Assembly (NCBI GenBank): GCA_964527555.1
Contig: CAZGOG010000004.1
Span: 10,593-74,592 of the forward strand
Origin: an uncultured Planctomycetia bacterium
GTDB taxonomy: Bacteria > Omnitrophota > Gorgyraeia > Tantalellales > Tantalellaceae
Reading direction: 5' to 3'
Length of the DNA stretch: 64,000 bases
Made by a program: the position numbers and the translations under genes. Numbering within the stretch: the stretch's first letter is position 1; each line of letters begins with the position of its first letter. The notes beneath the pieces are model-generated. The model was given only the letters and a program-made list of their open reading frames with translations. It searched no databases and had not been told where the DNA came from. This document shows positions 860-29,964 of this stretch, one piece after another.

Positions 860-967
860 AGCGCAGTAATTATAGCAGTAAGAGAAACTTATGTAAAGGC
901 GTAGCATGTATATAATATTTCAGGGACGGCAGGGCTATGCATAAATCCGTATTTTATTAAAAAAACA

Positions 968-995
968 TTGGCAATTCATGTTTTAAAAGTATAAT
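968..995 (+). promoter_or_regulatory. sigma70-like promoter upstream of mgtE (TTGGCA-16-TATAAT)
   Basis: ttggca at 968-973, a 16-nt spacer, tataat at 990-995. The mgtE ATG at 1069 lies about 70 nt downstream. Confidence 0.4.
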
Positions 996-1068
996 AATAG
1001 GGTGATATTAATACAATCAGCACTTTTCTACTTGATAGACTCAAGTTCTTAAAAACCGCACGATTATT

Positions 1069-2439: not shown

Positions 2440-2505
2440 GATGGGAATAAGAGGGCTTGTTAAATAGTCCTTGTGTGCGTAAAAAACAAAAAGTGGAGGT
2501 CGATA

Positions 2506-2691
2506 ATGGGAAAAGTATTGAGTTTACTGATCGGGGCGATCGTAGCGGTTGTGGGTGTCATACTTCTTATCGCATGGTGGTATGAATTCCTGTTTATGCT
2601 TAGGGGGGCTCTGCCCGTACTTCTCATACTGGGCGGCGGCATCGCCGTTGCGGCAGGTCTTAGTGAGCTTAAGGATGTCTTAAAAAAATAA
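2506..2691 (+). CDS. small two-TM membrane protein (hypothetical)
   Basis: A ggagg SD lies 6 nt upstream of the ATG at 2506 (an internal Met of track ORF 2473..2691). MGKVLSLLIGAIVAVVGVILLIAWW... gives two hydrophobic helices. Confidence 0.45.
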   Translation: MGKVLSLLIGAIVAVVGVILLIAWWYEFLFMLRGALPVLLILGGGIAVAAGLSELKDVLKK

Positions 2692-2706
2692 AACGCCTGT
2701 TTTAGC

Positions 2707-3282
2707 ATGAAAAAACCTGCGAAATATGCATATTTTGGGCTGGGCGTACTGGCTCTATTTCTTTGCTGCTCTGGATGCATGAAGGACCGCGCTGAGCTTG
2801 AGAAGAGAATACTCAGTTACGATCCGTCTTTCAAAGCGACTATTGAGAAGAGGGATTCTTTGCGTAAAGAACTGGGTGGCCAGCAGGCTATTTTCCTGAA
2901 GAACGTACAAGAGATTGACGGGTCTATAAGTGCCTTGAAGGAAAGAAAGGTTCAGGTAAGGAAGGAGTACTCATCACAGATCGACAGGATCAGAAGACAG
3001 ATGCAGCCGGATAAAAGGCAGCTCGAAAGAGAGCTGATGGAACGAGAGCGCCAGTATAGAAGCAAAAAAGATGATTTAAGGAACATCAAAAGAGACATAA
3101 AAGAGATCACGGCGCTGATGGATAAGAAAGATAAGCTTGCATTCACCCAGGAAGAGATAAGGACATGGGGCGACAGGCTTTCTTATCTTATCGAGAAGAA
3201 GGAAATCGTAAACGGCGAGATAGACAAGCTAAAGGACGAGATCGAGATAACAAAACTTAAAATCGCGGTTATTGAAGTGTAA
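2707..3282 (+). CDS. coiled-coil lipoprotein (signal peptide + lipobox, function unknown)
   Basis: The N-terminus LALFLCCSGC looks like a lipobox. The remainder is charged heptad-like sequence. Confidence 0.45.
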   Translation: MKKPAKYAYFGLGVLALFLCCSGCMKDRAELEKRILSYDPSFKATIEKRDSLRKELGGQQAIFLKNVQEIDGSISALKERKVQVRKEYSSQIDRIRRQMQPDKRQLERELMERERQYRSKKDDLRNIKRDIKEITALMDKKDKLAFTQEEIRTWGDRLSYLIEKKEIVNGEIDKLKDEIEITKLKIAVIEV

Positions 3283-3315
3283 AGATTCTTAAAAAATAAA
3301 AGAAGGGGTTTTTAA

Positions 3316-4884
3316 GTGAAAGTACAAAGGGCACTGGTAAGCGTCTCCGATAAAACGGGTCTGGAAGAGTTTGTTAAAGGGCTCGATAAACTGGGCATCG
3401 AGATAATCTCGACGGGCGGTACCGCTAAAAGGATAAGCGGTCTCGGCATACCCGTGAAACTCGTCTCCGCCTACACGGGCTACCCGGAGATGCTGGACGG
3501 CAGAGTCAAGACGCTTAACCCGAAGATCCATGCGGGTATCTTGGCACTGCGTGACAACAAAGACCATATGCTCAAGCTTGAGGAAAACGGGATATTAACC
3601 ATAGACATGGTGGTGGTGAACCTCTATCCTTTTGAAGAGACGGTGTCACGCGAAGATGTGACTAAAGAAGAGGCTATCGAGAATATCGATATCGGCGGGC
3701 CGACGATGCTGCGCAGCGCCGCCAAGAATTACCGTTTTGTTGCCGCAGTGAGCTCTCCTTCTCAGTATGAGCGCGTTTTGCGCGAGCTCCAAGAGAACGG
3801 CTCAGAGCTTGCAGAAGACACACTTAAAGCCCTGGCCGAAGAAGTCTTCGCCAAGACTTCCAGATACGACGCTCTTATAGCCCGGTATCTGGCGAAAGGT
3901 GAGAAGACTGCCTCCCGGGAGGAGGCGGAGCTGCCCGATAGAATAGACTTTCACTTCGAGAAAGTACGCAAGCTGAGATACGGCGAGAACCCCCATCAGC
4001 ATGCGGCGTTTTACCGTGACACTTCATCGCGTGACGCGGGTATATGCGGCTTGGAGCAGTTGCAGGGCAAGGAACTTTCCTTTAACAATATACTCGACCT
4101 CAACGCCGCTTTTGAGATGGTAAGAAGTTTTACGTCTCCCACGGTAAGCATAGTCAAACATAACAACCCTTGTGGTGTCGCCACGGCAGAGACGCTGGAA
4201 GAAGCGTATCTGGAGGCGCTTGACTCTGATCCGTTAAGCGCTTTCGGGAGCATCATGGGTTTTAACGGAGTTATTGACGGGAAGATGGCTGAGACTATAC
4301 TGGATAAAGCTGATTTCATTGAATGCATTATCGCCCCGGCGTATGAAGAGGAAGCCCTTACGGTCTTTAAAAACAAAAAGAACCTCCGTCTTCTGAAAGT
4401 TCCGCTTTTAGTAAAATCTTCGACGAGCGAGCGGGACCTCAAAAAAATACGCGGAGGAGCGCTCATCCAGGATATAGACGAGAGGGCCGTCTCAAGGGAC
4501 GATATCAAAATCGTTACAAAACAAAAACCTTCGAACGATCAACTGGAGTCGCTTTTATTCGCATGGAAGGTCGTAAAATACGTCAAAAGTAACGCTATTG
4601 TGTTATCCCGTGGGACAAAGACTGTCGGTATAGGCGCGGGACAGATGTCGCGCGTTGATTCAGTGATAATAGCCATACGTAAAGCTGCCGAAAGGGCAAA
4701 AGGCGCATCTTTAGCCAGTGACGCGTTTTTCCCCAAGACGGATTCCATAGAAGCAGCCCAGAAAGCCGGCATAAGCTCCATTATACAGCCCGGCGGGTCC
4801 ATACGCGATGAAGAGATAATCGAAGCATGTAACCGTCTAAAAATCCCCATGGTCTTTACCGGGGTCCGGCACTTTAAACATTGA
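3316..4884 (+). CDS. purH: bifunctional AICAR formyltransferase / IMP cyclohydrolase PurH
   Basis: GTG start preceded by aagaagggg. The MGS-like N-domain reads VSVSDKTGLEEF...ISTGGTAK, and the 522-aa length fits PurH. Confidence 0.9.
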   Translation: MKVQRALVSVSDKTGLEEFVKGLDKLGIEIISTGGTAKRISGLGIPVKLVSAYTGYPEMLDGRVKTLNPKIHAGILALRDNKDHMLKLEENGILTIDMVVVNLYPFEETVSREDVTKEEAIENIDIGGPTMLRSAAKNYRFVAAVSSPSQYERVLRELQENGSELAEDTLKALAEEVFAKTSRYDALIARYLAKGEKTASREEAELPDRIDFHFEKVRKLRYGENPHQHAAFYRDTSSRDAGICGLEQLQGKELSFNNILDLNAAFEMVRSFTSPTVSIVKHNNPCGVATAETLEEAYLEALDSDPLSAFGSIMGFNGVIDGKMAETILDKADFIECIIAPAYEEEALTVFKNKKNLRLLKVPLLVKSSTSERDLKKIRGGALIQDIDERAVSRDDIKIVTKQKPSNDQLESLLFAWKVVKYVKSNAIVLSRGTKTVGIGAGQMSRVDSVIIAIRKAAERAKGASLASDAFFPKTDSIEAAQKAGISSIIQPGGSIRDEEIIEACNRLKIPMVFTGVRHFKH

Positions 4885-9976: not shown

Positions 9977-10933
9977 ATGGCTATTACCCTTGATTTCGAA
10001 AAACCTATAATAGAGCTCGAGACAAAGATCGAAGAGCTCAAGAAGTTTACCAGGGATGAACATATTGATCTTTCCGATGAGATAATCAGGCTCAATGAGA
10101 GGCTGGAGAAGCTCAGGAAAGAGGTATTTCATAACCTTACTTCCTGGCAGAAAGTGCAGCTTTCACGGCATCCGGACAGGCCCTATACGCTTAATTATAT
10201 CGACATGATCACAGAAGATTTCATGGAGATCCATGGTGACCGCCATTTTTCTGACGATAAAGCCCTTATAGGGGGGCTGGCCAGGATCGGCGGACAGAAA
10301 CTCATGATCCTGGGACATCAAAAAGGCCGTGAGACCAAAGAGAACCTTGAAAGGAATTTCGGTTGCGCTCACCCCGAGGGATACCGCAAAGCCATGCGTC
10401 TTATGAGAATGGCTGAAAAATATAATATACCGGTAGTTGCTTTTATAGATACCCCCGGCGCTTATCCCGGTATAGGCGCTGAGGAACGCGGGCAAGCCGA
10501 GGCGATAGCTTACAACCTTAGGGGAATGGCGGGGCTTAAAGTGCCCATACTCGTATTTGTCATCGGTGAGGGAGGTTCCGGCGGAGCCCTCGGAATAGGC
10601 ATAGGGGATAGGATATTTGTCTTGGAGAACGCCTATTATTCCGTGATCTCACCGGAAGGCTGCGCCGCGATACTGTGGAGGGAGCCTTCAAAAGCCTCTG
10701 CTGCGGCTAAGTGCCTCAGGCTGACAGCGCCGGAACTGCTCGAGCTGGGTATAATCGACGGGATAATACCTGAGCCTCTCGGGGGTGCTCACAGAAATCC
10801 CGTTCTTGCGGCAAACGAGATAAAAAAGGTCATAGACAAAAACCTTAAAGAGCTCTCAAAGCTTTCGGAAGATGAACTTCTTGATGCCAGGTACAGAAAA
10901 TACAGGAGTATCGGCGTATATGACGAGGGGTGA
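9977..10933 (+). CDS. accA: acetyl-CoA carboxylase carboxyltransferase alpha subunit AccA
   Basis: [15 protein letters not shown]... with the crotonase-fold motif GGSGGALG. The protein is 318 aa. Confidence 0.9.
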
Positions 10934-10943
10934 TTTTAAAGAC

Positions 10944-11351
10944 ATGAAAACCACTATTGATAACGACAGTCATCTGCTCAAAGAAGTGAGTAAAAAACTC
11001 ATAAGCACGCTTCGGGCGCATAAAGTCAGGGAAGATATTATCTTTGATATTCATGTAGGTTTTGAGGAAGCCCTTCGCAATGCCATGATACATGGGAACA
11101 AGCAGGATCCCGGCAAAAAAGTGGTTGTTGAGACGGATATTATAGAAAACGCCGTGGTGATATCGGTAGAAGACGAGGGAGAAGGGTTCGATCCGAAAAA
11201 ACTGCCGGATCCCACGCTTGATGAGAACATTCTTAAGGAAGGCGGCCGCGGGGTCTATCTTATAAACCATCTTATGGACGAGGTCAAATATGAAAATGGC
11301 GGAAGAAGAGTTGTTATGATAAAATATTTTAATAAAAATGCCAACAAATGA
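10944..11351 (+). CDS. RsbW/SpoIIAB-like anti-sigma factor serine kinase (GHKL HATPase_c)
   Basis: N-box EALRNAMIHG, G1 DEGEGFD and G2 GGRGVYLI are all present. The start was chosen at the internal ATG at 10944, after the accA stop. Track ORF 10872 and the alternative 10920 start both overlap accA. Confidence 0.7.
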   Translation: MKTTIDNDSHLLKEVSKKLISTLRAHKVREDIIFDIHVGFEEALRNAMIHGNKQDPGKKVVVETDIIENAVVISVEDEGEGFDPKKLPDPTLDENILKEGGRGVYLINHLMDEVKYENGGRRVVMIKYFNKNANK

Positions 11352-11363
11352 CGGAGGCAGGAG

Positions 11364-11696
11364 ATGCAGATCAATCTGGAAAAGAAAGGCGAGGTATCGG
11401 TTTTTAAGGTCACCGGTGACATCGATATCGAAAGCGCACCTCAGGTAAAAAAGACCTTTGATAAAGCGATTACTTCAGCCAGTAAACAGGTCGTGATAAA
11501 CCTGCAGGAAGTCAGTTACGTGGACAGCTCCGGGCTTGCCACGCTGGTTGAGATCCTGAAAAACATGCGCAGCCACGGAGGAAAGCTGAAACTGGCCAAT
11601 CTTTCCGCCAAGGTAAAGGGGCTTTTTGAGATAACCAAACTGGATAAACTGTTTGATATCGCTCAAAGCGAAGAAGAAGCTATTAATTCTTTCTGA
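11364..11696 (+). CDS. STAS-domain anti-sigma-factor antagonist (SpoIIAA/RsbV-like, phosphorylatable Ser)
   Basis: 110 aa. It carries the ...YVDSSGLATLVEIL motif, in which the DSSG serine matches the phospho-site of SpoIIAA/RsbV. Confidence 0.75.
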   Translation: MQINLEKKGEVSVFKVTGDIDIESAPQVKKTFDKAITSASKQVVINLQEVSYVDSSGLATLVEILKNMRSHGGKLKLANLSAKVKGLFEITKLDKLFDIAQSEEEAINSF

Positions 11697-11737
11697 TTTA
11701 GGGTAAACTAATAGCAATATTATTAGAAAAGAAAACT

Positions 11738-12535
11738 ATGAAGAATCCGATAAGTGTCGTAGGAAGTATAGCGATCAGGCTCGTTAAGAGCATCACGGAC
11801 ATACTGGCGCTTTTGTGTAATACGATCATATGGATAATAATGGGGCCCCTTAAGGGCAAGGCGGCCAGCCGGCAGAGTATTTTCCAGCAGATGGTCTTTG
11901 CGGGAGTGCAGTCCGTTGTCATTGTCTTTTTCGTGTCGTTTTTTACCGGTATAGTCATAGCCATGCAGAGCGCCTATCAGCTTAAACAGCTGGGCGCGAT
12001 AATTTACGTGGCTCCCATGGTCAGCATAAGTCTGGCCAGGGAACTGGGGCCGGTCTTCACCGCACTGGTTGTAACCGGCAGAGTCGGCTCGGCGATAACG
12101 GCGGAGCTGGGGACCATGAAAGTCTCCGAGCAGATCGAGGCCCTTGAGACTTTGGCGCTCGATCCCGTAAGGTTCCTTGTGGTGCCGCGCTTTTTAGCGC
12201 TTCTGGTGATGCTTCCGTGTCTTACGATCATGAGCGATATCGTCGGCATACTGGGCGGCCTTCTTGTCGGCGTGTTCAACCTTCAGATCAACCCCTACAG
12301 GTACATAACTTTTTCTTTTGATTTCATGACATGGAAGGACGTATGGACGGGTCTGGTGAAAAGCGGAGTATTTGCGGTTATAATTTCCATGGTGGCCTGC
12401 CACGTGGGGCTTGAGACGCGCGGCGGCGCCGAGGGCGTAGGAAGATCCACGACGCTGAGCGTCGTTATCAGTTTTATAATGATCATTGTTTTTGATTGTC
12501 TCTTGACGGGACTGTTTTATTTTTCAAACGTATAA
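11738..12535 (+). CDS. mlaE: MlaE-family ABC transporter permease
   Basis: 265 aa and 5-6 TM segments, with an N-terminus typical of the MlaE/Ttg2B family. Confidence 0.8.
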   Translation: MKNPISVVGSIAIRLVKSITDILALLCNTIIWIIMGPLKGKAASRQSIFQQMVFAGVQSVVIVFFVSFFTGIVIAMQSAYQLKQLGAIIYVAPMVSISLARELGPVFTALVVTGRVGSAITAELGTMKVSEQIEALETLALDPVRFLVVPRFLALLVMLPCLTIMSDIVGILGGLLVGVFNLQINPYRYITFSFDFMTWKDVWTGLVKSGVFAVIISMVACHVGLETRGGAEGVGRSTTLSVVISFIMIIVFDCLLTGLFYFSNV

Positions 12536-12550
12536 ATATTTCAGGAAAAT

Positions 12551-13351
12551 ATGGAAGAAAGAGAAGTTGTAGTAGAAGTCAAGGATCTGGTAAAAAAGTT
12601 CGGCGAAAGGACCGTTTTAAACGGGGTCGACCTCAAAGTATACAGGGGAGAGACCTTTGTTATCATGGGCGGCTCCGGCTGCGGTAAAAGCACGCTGCTG
12701 CGTCATATGATAGGAAGCCTCAAGGCCACCAGCGGAAGGGTTATCTTGCTTGGCGAGGATATCACGGATCTATACGACTCCCAGCTCGATGATGTCCGCA
12801 AGAAAATAGGAATGTCGTTTCAGTCTTCCGCGCTTTTCGATTCGATGACGGTAGCTGAAAACGTAAGCCTGGCGCTTAGGGAACACACGAAACTGGAAAG
12901 GAGCGTCATCGATATCGTGGTAAAGATGAAGCTCGAACTCGTGGGCCTGAGGGGCTTTGAGGACCTTATGCCCAGCGAGCTTTCCGGCGGTATGAGAAAA
13001 AGAGTGGGCCTGGCCCGGGCCATAGCGATGGATCCCGAGATAATTTTTTATGACGAGCCTACCGCGGGACTCGATCCTATCGTGGCGGCTGTGATAGACA
13101 AGCTTATAATAGATCTTTCCAAGAAAATGGCCATAACAAGCGTCGTGGTCACGCATGACATGAAGAGCGTAATGGCTATAGCGGACAGGATAGCCATGCT
13201 TTATGAAGGCAAAGTCCTCGAGACGGGGACGCCTTATGAGATACAGAATTCCGCAAACGAGATGGTCCAGCAGTTCATAAACGGCAACCATGACGGGCCG
13301 ATACGGTTTTTCCAGCAGAAAGATGATTATCTGGAACACTTAACCCAGTAA
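12551..13351 (+). CDS. mlaF: MlaF-family ABC transporter ATP-binding protein
   Basis: Walker A GGSGCGKST, signature LSGGMRKRV and Walker B IIFYDEPT. Confidence 0.85.
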   Translation: MEEREVVVEVKDLVKKFGERTVLNGVDLKVYRGETFVIMGGSGCGKSTLLRHMIGSLKATSGRVILLGEDITDLYDSQLDDVRKKIGMSFQSSALFDSMTVAENVSLALREHTKLERSVIDIVVKMKLELVGLRGFEDLMPSELSGGMRKRVGLARAIAMDPEIIFYDEPTAGLDPIVAAVIDKLIIDLSKKMAITSVVVTHDMKSVMAIADRIAMLYEGKVLETGTPYEIQNSANEMVQQFINGNHDGPIRFFQQKDDYLEHLTQ

Positions 13352-20644: not shown

Positions 20645-20732
20645 GCCGGAGTGGTGGAATTGGCAGACGCGCTGGACTCAAAATCCAGTGGGGTATCCCC
20701 CCATGTGGGTTCGACTCCCACCTCCGGCACCA
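20645..20732 (+). tRNA. tRNA-Leu (anticodon CAA), long variable arm, encoded CCA
   Basis: Acceptor GCCGGAG pairs with CTCCGGC. The anticodon stem CTGGA/TCCAG closes a CTCAAAA loop, and the T-arm is GGTTCGACTCC. 88 nt. Confidence 0.9.
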
Positions 20733-20917: not shown

Positions 20918-21134
20918 CTATTAAAATTCGGACCTTTGGCCGGCGGTAATAGGTCAACCGCCGCCTTCGGCCCCTTCGGGCTGCTGGTAAACGCAGCCGA
21001 ATTTTTTTGAGAGGGAACCGATGGTTCCCTCTCAACGCCCGCCTTCGGCGGGCTGCTCACCCTCCTTTATAGGTAAGACGGGTGTAAACCCATGGGGCTC
21101 CACTTTTTAACAAACACAAAAAACCCGATTTAGG

Positions 21135-21334: not shown

Positions 21335-24300
21335 ATGAGGATTCAAAAAATATACAAGCTATTTTTAGGGATTTCTATAATAAGTCTGTTCGTATTATCT
21401 TTAATGATGCCTGAAGCTGCGGCAGTTGAGACCTACGACGTGATAAGATTTATTGCTCCGGTAGATGGGGATACATGGACTTATACGGGCGACGCGGAAA
21501 TGACTGTGACCGTGGATGGCACAAAGAATATATCGGGAGTGCCGGTGACATGTTACAGTTATAACGGCGGCCAGGCGGGAGGAGAAGAGGACGGCTCGGA
21601 GGAATATCAGATTATTGACCTAGAGGGTATAAACAGTTATGGTGTCGGGGCCCGGGATGATAACGGAGACTGGCTGGAGATGATTTTTGACGCGCCGCTT
21701 TCAATAGCGCCGAGATATGTAGAGTTAGGAGAGACTTATTACGGCAGCACGACTTATACGATATTTACGTATAAAATCCAGATAACTTCCAGTTTTACGG
21801 TTGATGAAGTGGAGGATGTCACTCTTCCCTCCGGAGTTGCCTACAAAGACGCATTAAAAGTTACAATGACACTTCATATGGAGAACTCTCTTCTTGGAAT
21901 AAATGAGACTTCAGGATACGAAAGCTGGAATGTAAGCGGTCTGGGGCCGGTTAAAGTCGTAAATACTATACTTCCGGCGGAACCCGAAGAGTCATACCTT
22001 GAAAGTGCTACAGTGCATCACGATTCCGGATATAAGAAGGCGGAGGTGTTTTCCGCACCTGACGGGGAAGGGTATTTTTATTATCAGTATCGTGATGAGG
22101 ATTATAATGGCCAGGGTTTCGGCAGAGTAAGCAGGAAACAGAGACCGGATACGAGCTATACAACATTCGAGGGCTATTATGAAAGAGCCGGTTCTAACCT
22201 TGACGGGTACCTTGAGAAAAACGGCGGGAAGATAGCTGATGAAGACAGCATCCTTATGCAGGGTTCTCATGCGGTTAAGGTAACCCCTAAACTTAACTCT
22301 TCAGACGTAAGATATGAAATACCGAATTATGCCGATTATGCGGGAGAGACTGTGACTTTTTCATGCTGGGTGCGTTCCTCGGGAGAAAGAGCGGCATGTA
22401 TTGAAATAAGGGACGGTTCGACTATCACCAGATCCGAGAGGCATTCCGGTAGCGGCGGATGGGAGCTTCTTACAATCACGCATACGGTAGCTAATGACCC
22501 GGCATATTTAAGGCTTAGATTTATTCCGGATAAAAGAGACGGGGATGATATCGCTTATTTTGACAATGCGATGTTCGGCAAGCCTTCTCTTCCGGGTAAG
22601 AACCTTCTTTTTAACAACGATTTTGAGTATTGGCATACGGCAGATGCGGACCAGGCGAAATATGTCAAAGAATATAATGAAAACGGTCTTATCGTAAAGT
22701 CCAGTGAGTATTATTCAGACGGTACGCTGTTTCGCCAGACGCTTTTTGATGGTTATTATGACGGTTCCCCTTCGGGGCTCGACGGCTGGGAAGTTGCCAA
22801 CGGGGGCAGCTTGGATGATGAAACTGCCACCGTGAGATCCGAGTCTCATTCCGCAGAAGTGGCAGCGGACCTGGTATCTTCAGACTTAAGATACGAAGTT
22901 TTGCACTACACGGATTATGCAGGCGCAGAAATCACTTTTTCGTGCTGGGTGTATTCCGAGGCGGCAAATTCAGCTCTTATCGAAGTAAGAGACGGCTCAA
23001 GCGTTACAAGATCCGCGTATCATTCGGGTTCCGGCGCCTGGGAGCTTCTCACAGTCACTCATACCGTCTCAGGATCTCCCGATTATCTAAGGTTTAGACT
23101 CATCCCTGATAAAAACGACGGGAATGATCCCGCCTGTTTTGATGATGCGGCATTCGAAAGAAGCGCCGATCCTGGAAACGACCTCTTTTTAAACAGCGGT
23201 TTTGAACACTGGTATGCTCCGGGTGATGATCAAGCCAGATACGTTACCGAGCGTGGGGCGGGCGGCGCTTTTATCAGTAGATGCGAATATTATTCCGACG
23301 GCACGCTTCATAAGCAAACATGCGACGAGGGTGAAGCTGTTTACTCCTGGTATGCGCCCAGCGGCAGGATGCACACTAAAGAGCTGCTTCTTGAGAACGG
23401 TGACCCCGCGGGGACGATATACGAGTATAGCGATGAAGACTGGAACTGCAGTAATTACGGCAGATTGATCAAAAAGACTGGGCCCAGCGGGACATATACG
23501 GTATTTGAAAATTATTTTGATTGCACCCGTTTTGGACTTGATGGATGGGAGATTGGAAACTTTGCTTCTTTCGCGGATGAGACTTCTACGGTGAGAGGAG
23601 GTTCGCATTCTACTAAAGTCAATGCTACGCTCACTTGTTCAGATATGAGATATGAAGGGGCAAACTATATGGATTATGCAGGTGAGGAAATCACTTTTTC
23701 GTGCTGGGTGTATTCCGAGGCGGCAAATTCAGCTCTTATCGAAGTAAGAGACGGCTCAAGCGTTACAAGATCCGCGTATCATTCGGGTTCCGGCGCCTGG
23801 GAGCTTCTCACAGTCACTCATACCGTCTCAGGATCTCCCGATTATCTAAGGTTTAGACTCATCCCTGATAAAAACGATGGGAATGATTCCGCCTATTTTG
23901 ATGATGCGACTTTTGAGCGAAGCGCCGATCCCGGGAATAACCTCCTTTTCAACAGCGGCTTTGAGCATTGGCGCGCTCCGGCGACCGACCAGGCGAGATA
24001 CGTAAAAGAGTATGCAGCGGACGATACTTTGCTTGAAACGTACGAATACTATTCTGACGGTACGCTGTATGAGTATTTGAATTTTGGGCCCAGTTCGCTG
24101 GTTTTAGAGGAGGGATTACAGTTTAATGAGGTAGCTGATCCCCCCTTACCGGAAAGCGTGGAGTATTTCTATGGGAGGATAGACGAGCTTAAAGCTGTTT
24201 CGGATGGACGCGGTGTCACAATTGCAATACTTGATACGGGGTTAGATACAGGCCGCCTTGATATTGATGTCATCGGCGGATTTGATTTTGCAGGGGAAAA

Positions 24301-25033
24301 CTGCTTTGACGGATTTTCCGATAGCGATTATACCGACTTTATAGGGCACGGCACTTTTACAGCCAGTGTCATTAAAGGTGAAGATGCGAGGGGAGTTGCC
24401 CCGGAGGCCGATATTCTTTCGGTTAAGGTGTTTGATAACCAGGGTGGGACGACTTCAGGCATTGTCGCCCGGGCGATCCGTTACGCGGCGGATATGGGCG
24501 CAAAAATCATAGCGATGCCGTTCAGTCTACTTCCGATAAACGGCCAGGTTGAAAGTGCTATTGACTATGCTACCGGCAAAGGCGCTATATTAATAGCTTC
24601 AGCAGGCAACGAGGGAAGTGAAGTAGAGGATACAAGCCTTGCGGCAAATGGTAAAGTTATCACGGTAGGCGCAGCTGATAATAACGGAAAAATGTCGGCG
24701 TGGAGCAATTACGGAAGTGAACTGGACCTTCTGGCGCCCTGGGATGTTGTGACCCTGGAAGAGGGAGGGGCGGGGACTTCTTTCTCGGCGGCCTTTGTAG
24801 CCGGTCTTACGGCGCTCATGCTTTCTGAGAATCCGGATATGACTGAGGAAGACGTGATTGAAGAACTCAAGGCTCTTACATCTGGCTTTGATATGGGAGG
24901 CGCAGAAGAAATCAAAGGCGCCGCTTATAATGACGTCATCTCCATGCAGGAAGCAGAAAGCAAAAACCGCACTGACTTTACCGGGTATTCGCCGGAGATG
25001 GATATTTATGTCGCGCCCGGCGCCGAGCATTAA
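21335..25033 (+). CDS. secreted modular subtilisin-like serine protease (peptidase S8) with three ~250-aa N-terminal repeat modules (YD-repeat-like motif + CBM4/9-like beta-sandwich)
   Basis: Signal peptide with AAAVE. Each repeat carries ...SHS..V......SDLRYE..NY.DYAGE.ITFSCWV.S.....ALIEVRDGSSVTRSAYHSGSGAWELLTVTHTV...PDYLRFRLIPDKNDG. Each also carries EYYSDGTL and YEYSDEDWN..NYGRL motifs. The C-terminal S8 triad is D(TIAILDTG), H(HGTFTAS), S(GTSFSAAFVAG). Confidence 0.85.
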   Translation: MRIQKIYKLFLGISIISLFVLSLMMPEAAAVETYDVIRFIAPVDGDTWTYTGDAEMTVTVDGTKNISGVPVTCYSYNGGQAGGEEDGSEEYQIIDLEGINSYGVGARDDNGDWLEMIFDAPLSIAPRYVELGETYYGSTTYTIFTYKIQITSSFTVDEVEDVTLPSGVAYKDALKVTMTLHMENSLLGINETSGYESWNVSGLGPVKVVNTILPAEPEESYLESATVHHDSGYKKAEVFSAPDGEGYFYYQYRDEDYNGQGFGRVSRKQRPDTSYTTFEGYYERAGSNLDGYLEKNGGKIADEDSILMQGSHAVKVTPKLNSSDVRYEIPNYADYAGETVTFSCWVRSSGERAACIEIRDGSTITRSERHSGSGGWELLTITHTVANDPAYLRLRFIPDKRDGDDIAYFDNAMFGKPSLPGKNLLFNNDFEYWHTADADQAKYVKEYNENGLIVKSSEYYSDGTLFRQTLFDGYYDGSPSGLDGWEVANGGSLDDETATVRSESHSAEVAADLVSSDLRYEVLHYTDYAGAEITFSCWVYSEAANSALIEVRDGSSVTRSAYHSGSGAWELLTVTHTVSGSPDYLRFRLIPDKNDGNDPACFDDAAFERSADPGNDLFLNSGFEHWYAPGDDQARYVTERGAGGAFISRCEYYSDGTLHKQTCDEGEAVYSWYAPSGRMHTKELLLENGDPAGTIYEYSDEDWNCSNYGRLIKKTGPSGTYTVFENYFDCTRFGLDGWEIGNFASFADETSTVRGGSHSTKVNATLTCSDMRYEGANYMDYAGEEITFSCWVYSEAANSALIEVRDGSSVTRSAYHSGSGAWELLTVTHTVSGSPDYLRFRLIPDKNDGNDSAYFDDATFERSADPGNNLLFNSGFEHWRAPATDQARYVKEYAADDTLLETYEYYSDGTLYEYLNFGPSSLVLEEGLQFNEVADPPLPESVEYFYGRIDELKAVSDGRGVTIAILDTGLDTGRLDIDVIGGFDFAGENCFDGFSDSDYTDFIGHGTFTASVIKGEDARGVAPEADILSVKVFDNQGGTTSGIVARAIRYAADMGAKIIAMPFSLLPINGQVESAIDYATGKGAILIASAGNEGSEVEDTSLAANGKVITVGAADNNGKMSAWSNYGSELDLLAPWDVVTLEEGGAGTSFSAAFVAGLTALMLSENPDMTEEDVIEELKALTSGFDMGGAEEIKGAAYNDVISMQEAESKNRTDFTGYSPEMDIYVAPGAEH
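22928..23118 (+). repeat. 191-bp perfect intragenic direct repeat, copy A (copy B at 23687-23877, period 759 bp)
   Basis: The DNA is identical between the second and third protease repeat modules. The flanks are about 75-85% identical. Confidence 0.8.
23687..23877 (+). repeat. 191-bp perfect intragenic direct repeat, copy B
   Basis: Identical to 22928-23118. Confidence 0.8.
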
Positions 25034-25087: not shown

Positions 25088-25116
25088 TTGACATCGTTTT
25101 ATGGCGATGTTATATT
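25088..25116 (+). promoter_or_regulatory. near-consensus sigma70 promoter for tRNA-Ala (TTGACA-17-TATATT)
   Basis: ttgaca at 25088-25093, a 17-nt spacer, tatatt at 25111-25116. The tRNA starts at 25139. Confidence 0.6.
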
Positions 25117-25138: not shown

Positions 25139-25214
25139 GGGGCTGTAGCTCAGCTGGGAGAGCGCGTGCATGGCATGCATGAGGTCAGGGGTTCGATCCC
25201 CCTCAGCTCCACCA
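25139..25214 (+). tRNA. tRNA-Ala (anticodon GGC) with G3:U70 identity pair and encoded CCA
   Basis: The acceptor GGGGCTG pairs with CAGCTCC, giving a G3:U70 pair. The anticodon loop ATGGCAT gives GGC. The T-arm is AGGGG-TTCGATC-CCCCT. Confidence 0.9.
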
Positions 25215-25335: not shown

Positions 25336-25614
25336 ATGTGGTATGTATATATACTAAAATGTGCAGACAGCACGCTTTACACAGGCGTTAATATCGATAT
25401 TTCCCGACGAGTAAAGCGGCATAACGCGAGAATAGGCGGCACTTATACCCGAACTCGTGTGCCCGTTGCTTTGGCTTACTCTGAAGAATGTCCCAGTTAT
25501 TCGGCAGCTCTTAAACGTGAAGCTCAGATCAAACGTTGGACAAAAAAGAAGAAGCTTGCGTTAATAGCTGGCGATGTCTCTTATCTGCACGAATTGAGCA
25601 AATCCTGCGATTAA
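25336..25614 (+). CDS. GIY-YIG nuclease family protein (YhbQ/UPF0213-like)
   Basis: WYVYILKCADSTLYTGVNIDISRRVKRHN is a classic GIY-YIG N-terminal motif. The protein is 92 aa. Confidence 0.7.
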   Translation: MWYVYILKCADSTLYTGVNIDISRRVKRHNARIGGTYTRTRVPVALAYSEECPSYSAALKREAQIKRWTKKKKLALIAGDVSYLHELSKSCD

Positions 25615-25622
25615 TTTCAAGT

Positions 25623-26273
25623 CTAAGGCAGAAACTCTTCCTCAAGTGCGGAAAGCGCTTCTTGCAGGAAATCCGTCAAAAGCTTCTCCTTTTTATCCAG
25701 ACTCTCTCCGCCCGGTTTTGCAGAAAGCTGAAAAGTGAACGCGGAGTTTCTCCTTTTCACGATAGAGTCAAGTACGTTTATTATCCTGAACTCTAAAAGG
25801 TCAGCTACATATCTTCGGTTTATCCTGTAACTGTAAAACATAAGTATTTTACTGCCGTTTTTTTGCGCAAGTATTTTTTTGAGCGGAACACGAGGGCTTT
25901 TTTCATCGTTTAGGATTATCATTTCATCCCCCAGGCTTTTAAACGACCAGCCGGATCCGACCCAGCATAGCTGAGGAGCGTGGGGAGTTTTGTCTTTTTT
26001 TGTGTATTCAAAATAAGCGAGATACAACTCGACTTTTTCGCCCTCCTTGTTTTTATACTCGCGGATCAGTATATCATCCGCTCCGAGATAAGTCGCCAGG
26101 TAATCTGAGCTGGTTTGTTCTTTGCCCTGCCACTCGCCGAGCTCGAAAGGAAAATATAAAAATGCTTTTCTAAGAGGAACAGGCTTACCCTCCGGAATAA
26201 AATTAATGTACAAAATAGAGGCAATCAGGATCAGCCATGATGCGAGTATGATTATAGTTTTTGAGAGTTTCAT
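25623..26273 (-). CDS. epsI: exosortase-associated EpsI-family protein
   Basis: 216 aa with an N-terminal anchor and a His-x-Pro...Cys region (HAPQLCW). It is translationally coupled (ATGA overlap) to the upstream exosortase gene. Confidence 0.65.
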   Translation of the reverse strand: MKLSKTIIILASWLILIASILYINFIPEGKPVPLRKAFLYFPFELGEWQGKEQTSSDYLATYLGADDILIREYKNKEGEKVELYLAYFEYTKKDKTPHAPQLCWVGSGWSFKSLGDEMIILNDEKSPRVPLKKILAQKNGSKILMFYSYRINRRYVADLLEFRIINVLDSIVKRRNSAFTFQLSAKPGGESLDKKEKLLTDFLQEALSALEEEFLP

Positions 26274-27082
26274 TAAGTCTTCCTCGATAAAAGGTCGTTT
26301 ATCGTAAAAAGTATTAAAAAGCCTATTATAAGAACCACTATGCCGGTCGTGTCATGGATGGAGGGGAGAATTTCCTGAAGGTTACGCATGTAAGCGATAT
26401 ACGCCGTTGAGACCAGTCTTACCGTATTCATGAGGACCGCTAGGATTATACTCGATATAAAAAGAAGCACTCTATTCTTAATATTTTTCTGAAATATATA
26501 TCCCAGGGCTAATGATATCGCCATGAACACTATAAGACTTCTTAAGCCGCTGCAGGGGGTTGCAACTACCAGTTTGCAGGAAGGGAGGTTTATTATGTTC
26601 CCTTCGCGCATAGCGCTGATACCGAAAAGTTTTATGAAGAAAAAAGCCAGGCGTGTACTGAACAGCCTCAGGTGAAACGTGATCGTTGTGTACACAAGCT
26701 GAGGCAGGGGTATCATAAAAACAAGATACGATATGGAAAAGGCGGTTTTTTTTGCCATTTCCCTGCCTGCCTGGGCGTAGACAAGGCCGAATAACACTAT
26801 CAACATGGAAAAGCATTGCAGGAAGAACTGGTATCCCATCCTTGCTGAGATGTACAGGATCACGCCGGAGAGAATAAACAAGACGCCTGAAGCCGAAGGA
26901 GAAATCCGTGTGTTTTTCAAGCTTTCCCTGTTCCTCCATAGGAAATAGATCGAAAGAATGGGGATAAAGAACCCGTGAGAATAATCCTCAACTGTCATCC
27001 ATTCTGTAACAAGCTCGGGGAATAGAGGCAGATACAACAGGGTAAAGAGGACTATATTTGTGGCAAGCTGGACATAACCCAT
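26273..27082 (-). CDS. xrt: exosortase (PEP-CTERM protein-sorting transpeptidase, Xrt family)
   Basis: A polytopic membrane protein with the N-terminal EDYSHGFFIP motif, an active-site-like Cys in ATPCSGLRSL, and a conserved N..R (LMNTVRL). Confidence 0.8.
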   Translation of the reverse strand: MGYVQLATNIVLFTLLYLPLFPELVTEWMTVEDYSHGFFIPILSIYFLWRNRESLKNTRISPSASGVLFILSGVILYISARMGYQFFLQCFSMLIVLFGLVYAQAGREMAKKTAFSISYLVFMIPLPQLVYTTITFHLRLFSTRLAFFFIKLFGISAMREGNIINLPSCKLVVATPCSGLRSLIVFMAISLALGYIFQKNIKNRVLLFISSIILAVLMNTVRLVSTAYIAYMRNLQEILPSIHDTTGIVVLIIGFLILFTINDLLSRKT

Positions 27083-27202: not shown

Positions 27203-28129
27203 ATGACGCATAAGCTAATAATATTAGTTTTATTTCTATCACCCCTTTTTACTGTCTCTTTAGGTGCAGACGAAGATACGGATCTTAAGGAATATATCGA
27301 GGACAAACTGGTAATAGCCAGATCCTATTACCAGCAGGGTTTTGCCGCTGGCCGGGATCCGGTATATTTTGACCGCGCAATAGAGGAATATACGAATATA
27401 CTGAAAACAGATCCCTGGAACAAAGAGGCAATAGTCGGCATGGCGGACATATATACCTCGAGAAAGAATTATGACGAGGCTGAAAGATTATACAGGCAAT
27501 CGATCAAATTAGACCCCTGGAACGTGGATTATCATCTAAAGCTGGGATTTCACTATATCGCCAGAGATTTAAGAGAAGAGGCGCTCGAAGAGGCGAACTG
27601 GGTGATCGAGTATGACCCGGAAAACGTAAGAGCACGCCTCTTAAGAGGTATTGTATATGAAAAAACGAGAGATCCGGCGGACGCGATAGACGAGTATCTC
27701 TATGCGATCAGGCATTTCGAGGCCGAAGGCAAAATTGCCTTTGAGATAGACGCGCGTTTAAGACTCGGCGCTCTGTACCTAAAAGAAAAGCTGATATTTG
27801 ATGGAGTAGAGCAGTATGAAGAAGTGGTTAAGATCGAACCAAGGTTTATAAGAGGGTATCTGGAGCTGGCGAATGTTTATTATCGCCTGGGCCGTATAGA
27901 TAAAGCGATTTCCACGCTTAAATTGCTGCTCAGGCATGGGGAGAGAGTTCCACAAGCGCATGTGATGCTCGCGCTTATATATTTCTATAGCGGCGATTAT
28001 GATGCCTCTTTTGCTTATTTTAAGAAGGCGGAGGCTTTTGGGGTCAGCTTTGGGGGCGAGCTTCTGGAGACGTTTAATAAGGTTAAAAGGGCCAAGGAAG
28101 AAAGCGTTAGAGCCGGGGAGCAAGAATAA
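27203..28129 (+). CDS. secreted TPR-repeat protein
   Basis: A signal peptide followed by multiple 34-aa TPR-like repeats (W-LG-Y-A-Y-A-P patterns). Confidence 0.65.
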   Translation: MTHKLIILVLFLSPLFTVSLGADEDTDLKEYIEDKLVIARSYYQQGFAAGRDPVYFDRAIEEYTNILKTDPWNKEAIVGMADIYTSRKNYDEAERLYRQSIKLDPWNVDYHLKLGFHYIARDLREEALEEANWVIEYDPENVRARLLRGIVYEKTRDPADAIDEYLYAIRHFEAEGKIAFEIDARLRLGALYLKEKLIFDGVEQYEEVVKIEPRFIRGYLELANVYYRLGRIDKAISTLKLLLRHGERVPQAHVMLALIYFYSGDYDASFAYFKKAEAFGVSFGGELLETFNKVKRAKEESVRAGEQE

Positions 28130-28134
28130 AGCCG

Positions 28135-29964
28135 ATGGATAAAATGTCTAAAAAAGGAATCCTATCAATAATCGCGGTTCTAGCCGTAGTCAGTATACTA
28201 TTTTTGTTCATAAGACTCTTCTTCTGGCCCCAGAGCAAAAAACCCAATATTCTTCTTATTACAACCCAGTCGTTAAGACCCAGCCACTTAAGCTGTTACG
28301 GTTACAGGCGTTTTAAGACCGGAGCTATTGATAATCTGGCAGGCGAGGGGCTCGTATTTGAGAATTCTTACTGCGACGTACCCGTCCCTGTTTACGGTTA
28401 TGCCTCAATCCTGAGCGGCAAGACCGGTTCCTCAGCGATATCAAGGCAAGGAGACAGTATCTATCTTAATATTTCAAGTAAGTTCTTAAGTGAGTACCTC
28501 CAGGAAAGCGGCTATGAAACGGTAGCCCTTACCGCTAACCCTGAACTCTCGAAAGCCATGGGTTTTGGAAAAGGATTTAATACGTTCCAGAATATAGGGG
28601 CGTCTCTGCCGAGGGCCGGTTTTCCTTTTGCCAGCAAAAAAGTCACTGAGGAAACCCTGGAAAATCTAAAAAAGTTTAGAAAAGGGAAAAAACCCGTTTT
28701 CCTGTGGGCAGATTACGCTATACCGCGGTTCCCTTACATCGTGCCCAGTTATTTTCTGGAGGCGGAGAATGATTTTGCCTATGATAGACAAGTAGTCTTC
28801 CTGGATAGTGAAATATCAAAGCTGATGGCAGGTGTTAAAAAACTCGGCCTGGACAATAATACCATAGTTATATTCACCGCGACGAACGGGGAAGCTCTTG
28901 GCGAACACGAAGAGCCGACCCACGGTGTGTTCTTGTATGATGCGACCGTAAAAACCCCGCTTATTATAAGATTTCCAAAGGATTTTTTTAAAGGAAATAG
29001 AATAAAAAAAGCTGTTTCTAATATCGACATCACTCCTACTGTTTTAGATATTCTCGGGATAGATAGTACGGAAGGCGGGTTTGACGGGATAAGCCTTCTT
29101 GACAGGCTTGAAGAGAGAAGAAGAGGTTCGGAAGACGTCTATCTTGAGTCCTTGGTCGGTTATTATGAATTCGGATGGAGCCCGCTTGTCGGGATAGTCT
29201 CAGACGGCTATAAATATATCCAGGCGCCTGAGCCTGAGCTTTATGATCTGGCAAAAGACCCTCATGAACTTAAAAATATAGCATCTTTTGATGAAGAAAA
29301 AGCCGAAGAGTTAAAAAATAAACTGTTTAAATACATCACCGAGAAAAGACCCCAGCTTCTTAGTATGGTGGACAGGGGAGAAGACCCCAAAGAGAGGGCA
29401 GGGGTGCTTAAGCCTTATCTACTGGCCATGTATTTCGGCAATGTCAATGTAGAGTGGCTCATAAGTATTTACAGGAATCTCCTGGCCATGGATCCGGATA
29501 ATAAGACGTTCAAGTATGTTCTGGCAAAACTTTTCATGCGCGTTAATAAACCACACCTGGCGGAGTATTATCTGGAAGAGATCACTGCCGCAAGCCCCGA
29601 TTCCAACCAGGCGTGGGAACTTCTGGGGATGGCGTATGCCCAGCAGAAGGAGGGCGACAATGCCGTTGAGTGTTACGAAAAGGCGATTGCCATTATTTAT
29701 GATATGCCGGTCTCTTTGAATAATCTTGCGTGGGCATACGCGCAAAAAGGCGTAAAGCTGGAGGAAGCTCTTAAATACGCACAGCGGGCGAACGAGCTTT
29801 TGCCCAATCAGCCCAAGATGATGGACACGCTTGCAGAAGTTTATTTTAAAATGGGGGATAAAGAGGAAGCCCTTGAAATAATTAGAAAAGCCGCGTCACT
29901 CGATCCACAGTCAGAATATCTTCAGAAAAGGTTAGGAGAAATAGAGGGGTTTATTTCTTCATAA
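28135..29964 (+). CDS. membrane-anchored sulfatase-like (alkaline phosphatase superfamily) enzyme fused to C-terminal TPR domain
   Basis: An N-terminal TM, then a sulfatase N-domain pattern (LLITTQSLRPSHLSCYGY, ...TNGEALGEHEEPTHG), then C-terminal TPR repeats. No canonical C/S-x-P-x-R formylglycine motif is present. Confidence 0.6.
   Translation: MDKMSKKGILSIIAVLAVVSILFLFIRLFFWPQSKKPNILLITTQSLRPSHLSCYGYRRFKTGAIDNLAGEGLVFENSYCDVPVPVYGYASILSGKTGSSAISRQGDSIYLNISSKFLSEYLQESGYETVALTANPELSKAMGFGKGFNTFQNIGASLPRAGFPFASKKVTEETLENLKKFRKGKKPVFLWADYAIPRFPYIVPSYFLEAENDFAYDRQVVFLDSEISKLMAGVKKLGLDNNTIVIFTATNGEALGEHEEPTHGVFLYDATVKTPLIIRFPKDFFKGNRIKKAVSNIDITPTVLDILGIDSTEGGFDGISLLDRLEERRRGSEDVYLESLVGYYEFGWSPLVGIVSDGYKYIQAPEPELYDLAKDPHELKNIASFDEEKAEELKNKLFKYITEKRPQLLSMVDRGEDPKERAGVLKPYLLAMYFGNVNVEWLISIYRNLLAMDPDNKTFKYVLAKLFMRVNKPHLAEYYLEEITAASPDSNQAWELLGMAYAQQKEGDNAVECYEKAIAIIYDMPVSLNNLAWAYAQKGVKLEEALKYAQRANELLPNQPKMMDTLAEVYFKMGDKEEALEIIRKAASLDPQSEYLQKRLGEIEGFISS

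Follow-up and report, generated by a model that had tools for sequence, protein, structure and literature searches.

Carbohydrate-binding modules (CBMs) of families 4, 9, 16 and 22, as found in glycoside hydrolases, have a galactose-binding-domain-like jelly-roll fold, which is also that predicted for the repeated modules of the protein considered here, a subtilase; in contrast to the enzyme-borne CBMs, however, the latter modules fall below the Pfam cut-off, are attached to a protease and are nested in YD repeats. The nearest sequence family is formed by phage receptor-binding modules, namely the GTA/phage head-spike fibre domain (NF048003), tail-fibre modules, the CBM insertions of evolved Dit proteins and gp31 of HFTV1. 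CBM insertions in Dit proteins and phage head spikes have been described as saccharide binders, and CBM-fold modules of phage fibres can bind protein receptors too. HFTV1 gp31 joins the same kind of module to a catalytic domain acting on host surface glycans, and the authors of the HFTV1 structure consider its matching region to be a galactose-binding-like carbohydrate module that provides first attachment to host glycans. Unlike these phage modules, the subtilase is encoded by a chromosomal gene with no phage genes around it, carries a Sec signal and an S8 domain, and has its modules interleaved with YD hairpins.

The RHS/YD proteins (PF05593), among them polymorphic toxins, Tc toxins and teneurins, are related to the subtilase through its hairpin motifs (YxYxD...GRLI and YEYxxDGxL), for which homologous repeats in its relatives pass RHS_repeat; the subtilase has no closed shell, RHS core, C-terminal toxin or immunity gene and is built on a distinct super-repeat of ~92 aa. 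Furthermore, Omnitrophota and sibling PVC bacteria have been described to secrete large and giant extracellular proteins with carbohydrate-binding, RHS-type, peptidase (S8, C39) and glycosidase domains, for which roles in prey adhesion and wall digestion or in polymer degradation are proposed (West-Roberts et al. 2023 bioRxiv; Environ Microbiome 2025, 20:48). The sections consulted hold no description of the module type of the subtilase, which differs from the giant proteins in its ordinary size (1232 aa) and in having neither transmembrane segments nor a SecA-like domain. Set beside these systems, the subtilase is an unusual variant built of known blocks, and not a new kind of system.

Results

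The window is the whole 64,000-nucleotide stretch of contig CAZGOG010000004.1 that was analysed, and positions are counted from its first letter. The open reading frame at 21335..25033 (+) is a real gene; it encodes 1232 aa from an ATG start with a Shine-Dalgarno sequence (AAGGAG) 7 nt 5' of it, and 12 contigs, drawn from several JGI and ENA assemblies, encode the identical product. Its features are as follows, with homologues denoted by our labels (P or L and a number).

21335..21424 (+), aa 1-30: predicted Sec-type signal peptide, from the translation and the upstream sequence, where AAGGAG precedes
21425..22069 (+), aa 31-245: unique N-terminal domain, from profile and protein searches
22070..22165 (+), aa 246-277: YD-type hairpin linker 0, YYQYRDEDYNGQGFGRVSRKQRPDTSYTTF; phmmer matches to the tandem super-repeats of P0006, P0031 and P0104, domain E down to 4.6e-10
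22166..22639 (+), aa 278-435: beta-sandwich module 1, CBM4/9-like, of phage-fibre type; internal repeat, NF048003 E 1.9e-4
22640..22744 (+), aa 436-470: YD-type hairpin linker 1, DQAKYVKEYNENGLIVKSSEYYSDGTL; DUF2963 E 0.002 (Pfam), phmmer matches to RHS_repeat-positive relatives
22745..23218 (+), aa 471-628: beta-sandwich module 2; internal repeat, contains the 191-nt tract 22928-23118
23219..23503 (+), aa 629-723: full YD super-repeat of ~92 aa between modules 2 and 3; matches tandem units of P0006, P0026, P0050, P0104 and P0048, domain E down to 1e-24
23504..23977 (+), aa 724-881: beta-sandwich module 3; AlphaFold2 pLDDT >90, Foldseek matches, best NF048003 stretch aa 731-866
23978..24109 (+), aa 882-925: YD-type hairpin linker 3, DQARYVKEYAADDTLLETYEYYSDGTLYEY; phmmer match to P0006 residues 965-995
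24110..24205 (+), aa 926-957: short connector (32 aa), no Pfam match; the BLASTP alignment with the L007 homologue begins inside it, at aa 938
24206..24856 (+), aa 958-1174: compact Peptidase_S8 catalytic domain, Pfam E 7e-39
24857..25033 (+), aa 1175-1232 and stop codon: C-terminal tail, partly conserved in the L007 homologue

Read by eye, the N-terminus passes from MRIQK through a 17-residue hydrophobic stretch to PEAAA|VE, and the product is on this reading predicted to be Sec-exported. The domain that follows is non-repeated (215 aa) and very acidic (pI 4.05); searches of Pfam, NCBIfam, the PDB and protein collections returned no relatives of it, comparison with the sandwich gave no indication of a degenerate copy (hhalign probability 0.1), and neither P0004 nor the L007 homologue has a counterpart. 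At the other end, no PEP-CTERM, LPXTG or other sorting signal was matched in the tail by Pfam or NCBIfam, and with regard to features of an exosortase substrate, the C-terminus (...YSPEMDIYVAPGAEH) lacks a hydrophobic helix and matches no PEP-CTERM model at E<=1.

The peptidase domain scores 134.3 bits on PF00082 against a gathering cut-off of 21.8. The catalytic residues D967 (ILDTG), H1005 (GHGT) and S1149 (GTSFS), together with the oxyanion residue N1092 (AGNEG), are present in order and align with those of AK.1 protease and thermitase (E 2.7e-28); the triad is intact. Both the secretion and the C-terminal placement of the S8 domain that the preliminary description had claimed are thus borne out, the former as a prediction. 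Ahead of the domain there is only the connector, and Pfam reports no I9 propeptide there, a domain which is typical of subtilases without defining them. In NCBIfam, the compact S8 is matched best by the mycosin model TIGR03921, though at 142.4 bits it stays below the cut-off of 278.75; the likeness appears to be a resemblance limited to the compact domain, and the protein does not qualify as a mycosin of a T7SS. Intracellular subtilisins are also among its PDB matches.

Between these ends lie three internal repeats, the similarity of which is far beyond chance (52-73% identity, E 1e-67 to 1e-92, BLASTP of the segments against their own protein). The three copies are also evident in the DNA, with start-to-start distances of 579 and 759 nt; the corresponding spacings of 193 and 253 aa are unequal since a full super-repeat of ~92 aa lies in the stretch that links modules 2 and 3. 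The 191-nt tract within module 2 (22928-23118) is identical to 23687-23877. It had been proposed that the N-terminal 870 aa consist of three repeats of about 250 aa. The number of repeats stands, but the repeat region spans approximately aa 246-925, the first ~245 aa being unique, and the spacing is not uniform. The motifs quoted for the repeats are present: FSCWV and YYSDGTL each occur three times, the former at aa 342, 535 and 788 and the latter at aa 459, 652 and 905, and GRL lies at aa 709.

The jelly-roll core of module 3 (~aa 736-866) was modelled by AlphaFold2 at pLDDT >90. A Foldseek search of the PDB with this core returned CBM22, CBM16, CBM4-2, a porphyran CBM and the carbohydrate-binding domain of the turret head of HFTV1, all at probability 1.0, with TM scores normalised to the target of 0.58-0.71 for the stand-alone CBMs (4xuo, 1h6x, 2zey, 2y6j, 8xmz); the sequence identity of the modules to the CBMs matched is 10-16%. 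The top structural matches are genuine CBMs whose structures were determined with ligands. The viral matches of the core are tail fibres and proteins annotated 'Carbohydrate-binding, CenC-like', and jelly rolls that are not lectins, namely Cry11 toxins and a MAM domain, are matched as well. A family profile of the modules aligned over nearly the full length of CBM4-2 of T. maritima Lam16A (1gui, E 0.004) and matched HFTV1 gp31 at E 7e-4. From the model core, the Foldseek matches and the profile match, all three modules, each of ~150 aa, are predicted to have the CBM4/9/16/22 jelly-roll fold.

CBM_4_9 (PF02018) does not match the subtilase itself, even with separate segments at E<=10. The modules have 1915 homologue matches at E<=1e-3, and 19 of 99 homologues scanned pass Pfam CBM_4_9 (best E 2.6e-18); P0010 matches it at E 4e-8, and the module of L014 falls just below the cut-off (25.5 against 25.9 bits). 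Many of the 99 match tail-fibre or Dit PHROGs. On NF048003, the phage head spike fiber domain, the whole protein reaches 43.7 bits in two stretches against a cut-off of 36, a membership that rests on the summed score, single modules having 22.0 and 23.5 bits. By sequence, the nearest relatives of the modules are phage tail-fibre, Dit and head-spike modules rather than the CBMs of enzymes. The residues kept across ~1900 homologues (W, H-x-G, W-E and Y-F-D) look structural rather than specificity-determining. Domain and structure searches assigned the repeats neither to a protease propeptide nor to a PKD or fibronectin fold without similarity to CBMs; the resemblance to CBMs suggested at the outset is upheld by the model, the structural matches and the homologues.

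The linkers match P0006, P0026, P0050, P0104 and L014, all of which score above the 22-bit cut-off of RHS_repeat, and the match of linker 3 in P0006 overlaps a Pfam RHS_repeat match at 976-1000. In L008 the super-repeat runs on into canonical YD repeats. On the subtilase itself Pfam reports no RHS_repeat (PF05593), the sole weak match being that to DUF2963, and neither Pfam nor NCBIfam reports an RHS-associated core domain. In keeping with the YD/RHS-like motifs noted in the preliminary description, the linkers are, as judged by homology, divergent YD/RHS hairpins derived from the ~92-aa super-repeat. AlphaFold2 places consecutive beta-hairpins in the super-repeat at aa 629-723 with moderate confidence (pLDDT 50-85), so that the 'ribbon' geometry is tentative. 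The hairpins total ~240 aa in four separate linkers, which is too few to build an RHS shell. A polymorphic toxin system was considered as a class for this locus and rejected, as there is no C-terminal toxin domain and no adjacent immunity gene.

Relatives occur in Omnitrophota and Planctomycetia MAGs and in saline-sediment metagenomes, and the bacterium that carries the subtilase gene is presumably Omnitrophota-like or a member of the PVC (Planctomycetota-Verrucomicrobiota-Chlamydiota) group. L007, an Omnitrophota MAG protein (JBAYES010000076.1, ORF 22-3753, 1243 aa), is of similar length to the subtilase, likewise has N-terminal YD super-repeats and a C-terminal compact S8 and is without an I9 propeptide; the S8 domains share 44% identity across 306 aa, an alignment that takes in part of the connector and the tail. 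It has no CBM-like sandwiches, whereas the subtilase has three, inserted at super-repeat junctions. The layout was described as not standard for a subtilase, and it is indeed uncommon, but L007 demonstrates that it is not unique. In P0004 (the same protein as L013, metagenome Ga0180431, 1808 aa), four [YD + sandwich] modules precede a C-terminal GH5 mannanase-like domain that matches the beta-1,4-mannanase 3vup at E 9e-13. The modules are 61-68% identical to those of the subtilase, whose YD linkers and NLLFNxxFExW motif they share; P0004 differs in having a GH5-type glycosidase in place of S8, another N-terminus and four modules rather than three. Two further members are very large proteins, L014 (>3033 aa) with three such modules and a Peptidase_C39, and L009 with a LamG domain nested in the same ~92-aa super-repeat. 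These comparisons show the array proteins to be a recombining family.

Discussion

We favour a reading in which multivalent lectin-like modules direct a secreted protease to a surface or matrix rich in glycans, and we would assign it, with the binding and the target that we infer, a probability of approximately 0.55. The three lectin-like modules, spaced by the YD ribbon, would bind a repetitive glycan with avidity, the candidates being the polysaccharide of a cell surface, the glycan of an S-layer or a matrix of exopolysaccharide, and the protease would thereby be concentrated where proteins lie within such a layer. The target could be the surface of prey or other foreign cells, an environmental polymer or the producer's own matrix. 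Since the array is found joined to a carbohydrate-cleaving enzyme in relatives, it is most likely an exchangeable targeting arm.

The gene neighbourhood bears on one form of anchoring, in which the modules would bind exopolysaccharide of the producer itself, synthesised by the neighbouring polysaccharide/exosortase locus, and the protease would be retained in the cell's own capsule or biofilm matrix, there to process matrix or PEP-CTERM proteins or to scavenge peptides. On the opposite strand, 600 nt downstream of the subtilase gene, there are a split exosortase and EpsI, followed by TPR and sulfatase-TPR proteins, CysD/CysN-like genes, epimerases, Wzx and Wzy, and such anchoring agrees with the 'surface-glycan-anchored' option of the preliminary description. 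We nonetheless think it unlikely, since the gene is a separate unit between two tRNA genes and terminator-like hairpins, the subtilase bears no PEP-CTERM signal in Pfam or NCBIfam, and the examined flanks of the L007 and L008 relatives contain no exosortase (in L010 and L013 the relative itself extends to the end of its contig). It is also conceivable that no carbohydrate is recognized at all, and that the jelly rolls, together with the YD hairpins, serve as in phage fibres for spacing or as a scaffold for oligomerisation, or else bind a protein receptor. The kinship to phage fibre, Dit and head-spike modules, the structural look of the conserved residues and the matches to Cry11 toxins and the MAM domain would all accord with such a role. 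What makes it rather improbable in our estimation is that in P0004 this array is fused to a GH5 domain resembling mannanases, along with the ligand-bound CBMs that head the structural matches and the saccharide binding ascribed to Dit insertions and head spikes. The carbohydrate-module assignment of the matching HFTV1 turret-head domain by its authors argues in the same direction.

The compact S8 domain could also be imagined to act upon its own molecule, cutting the YD scaffold or releasing a cargo in the manner of a polymorphic toxin. For Sec-dependent toxins that carry RHS repeats, subtilisin is listed as a processing protease (Zhang et al. 2012), possible cleavage of giant Omnitrophota proteins by S8 and C39 domains is suggested by West-Roberts et al., and the array is conserved between relatives whose C-terminal domain varies. 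Those alternative domains are, however, ordinary extracellular hydrolases. Only a 58-aa tail, partly conserved in L007 and with no toxin domain, follows the S8; downstream there are a tRNA-Ala and a GIY-YIG ORF instead of an immunity-like gene, and with the shortage of hairpins and of an RHS core already described, we consider self-processing very unlikely. Subtilases usually need an N-terminal intramolecular chaperone, and in a protein that lacks the I9 propeptide the N-terminal 925 aa might stand in for it as folding chaperone or inhibitor, to be removed and degraded on activation. Yet this array also stands in front of a GH5 domain, for which a chaperone of this kind is unnecessary, and the modules belong to a large receptor-binding family. 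The compact S8, moreover, resembles mycosins (below the cut-off) and intracellular subtilisins, which fold without a classical I9 propeptide, and a giant propeptide is accordingly scarcely to be credited.

If the targeting arm that we favour is placed in the biology of these organisms, a broader and decidedly more doubtful proposal may be entertained. In Omnitrophota-like bacteria, which are possibly predators or epibionts, the array may be a recombining arm dedicated to recognition, a cellular counterpart of the receptor-binding fibres of phages, in which alternative 'warheads' (S8 protease, GH5 mannanase, C39-bearing giant proteins) would attack the glycan-coated envelopes of other cells, and gene conversion between modules, as may be seen in the identical 191-nt tract, would shuffle specificity.

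The subtilase gene and its protease domain

The ORF at window positions 21335-25033 (plus strand), previously described as encoding a 1232-aa subtilase, has an ATG start, a strong Shine-Dalgarno sequence (AAGGAG) 7 nt before it, a subtilisin-type Peptidase_S8 (S8) domain at aa 958-1174 (E 7e-39), which is the sole Pfam match of the protein, and intact catalytic residues, all of which bear that description out. Several metagenome assemblies (JGI, ENA) contain contigs, 12 in all, that encode the identical 1232-aa product with the same neighbours every time, and the gene is therefore no assembly accident. By reading, the N-terminus is a signal peptide of the Sec type (MRIQK, a 17-residue hydrophobic core, then PEAAA/VE). 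The S8 domain is compact and can be aligned to AK.1 protease and thermitase (E 2.7e-28), the catalytic positions being occupied by D967, H1005, N1092 and S1149; neither an I9 propeptide upstream of this domain nor a sorting signal downstream of it is present in the protein. The product is strongly acidic (pI 4.3), as would fit a saline habitat. Three other identities were considered and rejected: a mycosin, for which the score lay far under the cut-off and the T7SS context was absent; an exosortase substrate, since the protein has no PEP-CTERM signal; and a classical RHS toxin, as the repeats are too few for a shell and the core domain, toxin and immunity gene are all lacking.

Architecture of the N-terminal array

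Segment-wise BLASTP recovers three internal repeats (E 1e-67 to 1e-92, identity 52-73%) where whole-protein self-BLAST gave the identity match alone, and the copies are spaced by 579 and 759 nt in the DNA. The three copies of the preliminary description thus stand, while the extent ascribed to them does not: they cover about aa 246-925 (hereafter the array), and aa 31-245 are unique. This latter stretch (window 21425-22069) forms a 215-aa acidic N-terminal domain outside the repeats, which has no match in Pfam, NCBIfam or PDB, nor in the close relatives P0004 and L007, and was ruled out as a degenerate sandwich by hhalign. A word-indexed search with this domain also returned no relatives, which is weak evidence because the same search likewise missed the parent protein.

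Such a search with aa 1-940 returned the window protein itself and nothing more; the family of relatives was opened by an exhaustive HMMER search of 1.84 billion representative proteins with a profile of the three repeats, which yielded 1915 proteins at E<=1e-3. The matches separate cleanly into two independent elements, a beta-sandwich of ~150 aa and the linkers. The sandwich bears the signature NGxFExW..PDGW...YSxK.T...Y.G..VTF.CWV...A.I.I.DG....S.YHSG...WE.LTVT....AT......AYFDGA. Of 99 sandwich relatives scanned, 19 pass Pfam CBM_4_9 and six carry SPP1_Dit, and many are tail fibre or Dit proteins according to PHROGs. The window protein does not reach the Pfam CBM_4_9 threshold; it passes, with 43.7 bits vs 36, the NCBIfam model NF048003 ('phage head spike fiber domain'). 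A profile of the sandwich family matches the carbohydrate-binding part of the HFTV1 turret head protein gp31 (E 7e-4) and, over nearly its full length, CBM4-2 of T. maritima laminarinase (E 0.004). AlphaFold2 modelling of aa 612-925 on a 51-sequence alignment gave a pLDDT of 74.8, with the sandwich core >90 (an alignment of just the three repeats led to an unusable model, pLDDT 43). The top PDB matches of the model are CBM22, CBM16, CBM4-2, the HFTV1 turret and a CBM that binds porphyran, and its top viral matches are tail fibres and 'Carbohydrate-binding, CenC-like' proteins. These sequence-family, profile and structure matches identify the sandwich as a divergent jelly roll with the CBM4/9 fold, belonging to a sub-type found in phage receptor-binding proteins. 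The motif NLLFNxxFExW stands after every sandwich of the window protein, at low confidence in the AlphaFold2 model; in phage-type relatives this motif is the first strand of a module.

Modules 2 and 3 are exactly identical over 191 nt (22928-23118 = 23687-23877), and their DNA outside this tract is 50-70% identical. The tract looks like a recent intragenic gene conversion between modules; since 12 contigs carry the same product, this is more likely than an artefact of assembly.

The 95-aa linker joining modules 2 and 3 is one unit of a super-repeat that is ~92 aa long and comprises about four hairpins, with the consensus ...DQARYVxEYdxxGxLxxxYEYxxxGxL...YxYYxxSGRMxTKxLxDGTxYEYxDExWxxxxYGRLIKxTxPDGTYKTFxxYY, and the sandwiches are inserted at its junction, between ...TYKTFxxYY and xxTxQARYVxEY.... 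The unit occurs in tandem in P0006, P0026, P0050, P0104, P0114 and other relatives. The window hairpins themselves do not pass Pfam RHS_repeat. Since tandem super-repeat proteins score over its cut-off, and since in locus L008 the super-repeats run on into canonical YD repeats, the window hairpins are homologous to YD/RHS repeats. Both likenesses proposed in the preliminary description are hence upheld, that of the sandwich to CBM4/9 modules via the CBM_4_9 hits of relatives, the CBM4-2 profile match, the modelled core and the PDB matches, and that of the linkers to YD/RHS motifs through the super-repeat relatives.

A giant ORF (>3300 aa) in an uncultured Planctomycetia MAG (L009, CAYPCX010000007.1, locus positions 10001-13000) extends past the locus end and is composed of the same super-repeat, with a LamG (Laminin_G_3-like) domain nested within one hairpin; L018 and L019 contain the same sequence. 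Lectin-type domains can therefore be nested in the YD scaffold, and this LamG is a second case of such an insertion.

Relatives and their catalytic or other domains

Proteins and loci related to the window protein
P0004 (= L013), metagenome Ga0180431, 1808 aa: four YD-plus-sandwich modules, 61-68% identical to the window's; C-terminal domain resembling GH5 beta-1,4-mannanases (3vup, E 9e-13)
L014, contig Ga0180432_10009467, 544-9642: ORF >3033 aa; three window-type sandwiches, RHS repeats and Peptidase_C39
L007, Omnitrophota MAG, 1243 aa: YD super-repeats without sandwiches; C-terminal S8
P0023, P0031, P0120, L012, various sources: YD super-repeats and S8
P0006, P0026, P0114, P0132, L010, various sources: YD super-repeats and GH5-like domain

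The S8 domain of L007 is 44% identical to that of the window protein over 306 aa, tail included. L014, with its C39 peptidase, is a third context for the array, after S8 and the GH5-like domain. Every genome match is a MAG that bears the label Candidatus Omnitrophota or uncultured Planctomycetia; L010, from an Omnitrophota MAG, has a ComEC gene at 46-59% identity to that of the window. The window organism probably belongs to an Omnitrophota-like lineage of the PVC (Planctomycetota-Verrucomicrobiota-Chlamydiota) group. Compared for a common genome of origin, the tetranucleotide frequencies of the window and related contigs correlate at r 0.53-0.87.

Genomic surroundings

Features around the subtilase gene (window positions)
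20645-20732: tRNA-Leu(CAA), on one side of the gene
20979-20998 and 25089-25112: terminator-like hairpins around the gene
25139-25214: tRNA-Ala(GGC), on the other side
25336-25614: GIY-YIG-domain ORF, 92 aa, just past tRNA-Ala; called as a gene in some assemblies only
25623-27082, minus strand: split exosortase, an EpsH-type 8-TM protein (269 aa), then a separate EpsI (216 aa)
27203-29964 and 36536-63207: TPR protein and sulfatase-TPR fusion, then polysaccharide genes

The subtilase gene stands alone as a unit between the two tRNA genes, and the slot that they flank could be a hotspot of gene gain. No regulatory RNA was found in the 600 nt upstream, Rfam at gathering thresholds giving two tRNAs only. 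XrtW and XrtD are the models nearest to both the EpsH-type and the EpsI protein, with scores below every subtype cut-off, and the pair may represent an unclassified exosortase subtype. The polysaccharide genes beyond the sulfatase-TPR fusion encode CysD/CysN-like sulfate activation, a phosphodiesterase, epimerases, a Wzx flippase and a Wzy polymerase; together with the TPR genes they probably constitute a (sulfated?) exopolysaccharide locus tied to the exosortase. From about 44 kb onwards, as far as the window end, GC is lower, at 0.39-0.42.

Proposed function and significance

The Sec signal, the intact S8 active site, the three CBM-fold modules and the YD-type linkers are established for the window protein, and we infer that the array targets the protease to glycan: the three modules would bind a repetitive glycan multivalently and, once bound, would keep the S8 domain on a glycan-rich surface or matrix. 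In P0004, a close relative, the same array is fused to a glycosidase. HFTV1 gp31 pairs a CBM with a deacetylase proposed to act on host S-layer glycans, a logic of binding module and catalytic domain at surface glycans like that proposed here, and the same targeting logic has been put forward for the large extracellular proteins of Omnitrophota and sibling lineages, with their CBM, peptidase and glycosidase content (West-Roberts et al. 2023 bioRxiv; Environ Microbiome 2025, 20:48).

That the glycan in question is the producer's own matrix, to which the array would attach the protease, is a reading kept because the polysaccharide and exosortase locus adjoins the subtilase gene. Three points speak against it: the gene is a separate unit between tRNA-Leu and tRNA-Ala, its product carries no PEP-CTERM signal, and exosortase is absent from the examined flanks of L007 and L008. 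Less likely are an array that serves as a structural stalk and nothing more, a polymorphic-toxin-like protein that processes itself, and an N-terminal part that is a giant propeptide.

The S8 domain, the CBM4/9-fold module and the YD repeats are each of a known kind, and comparable domain mixtures are on record for extracellular proteins of the PVC group and for Sec-exported RHS proteins. In the literature consulted we found no description of this particular arrangement, in which phage-fibre-type CBMs are nested in a YD super-repeat before a propeptide-less S8 domain and a GH5 enzyme has the array too. For annotation, 925 aa without a Pfam match are brought to known folds by family profile and structure model. 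The protein documents the use of a phage-fibre-type CBM module by a cellular secreted enzyme, and the family documents that YD repeats can act as a scaffold for nested domains (CBM-like in the window, LamG in L009). Should the array prove to be an arm that recognises glycans, the family, though small, would be a tractable model, with a soluble protein of 1232 aa in place of a 30,000-aa giant. It could then reveal by what means Omnitrophota-like bacteria, and uncultured bacteria related to them, direct extracellular hydrolases to cell surfaces or matrices, a function only inferred until now, for the giant proteins of these bacteria.
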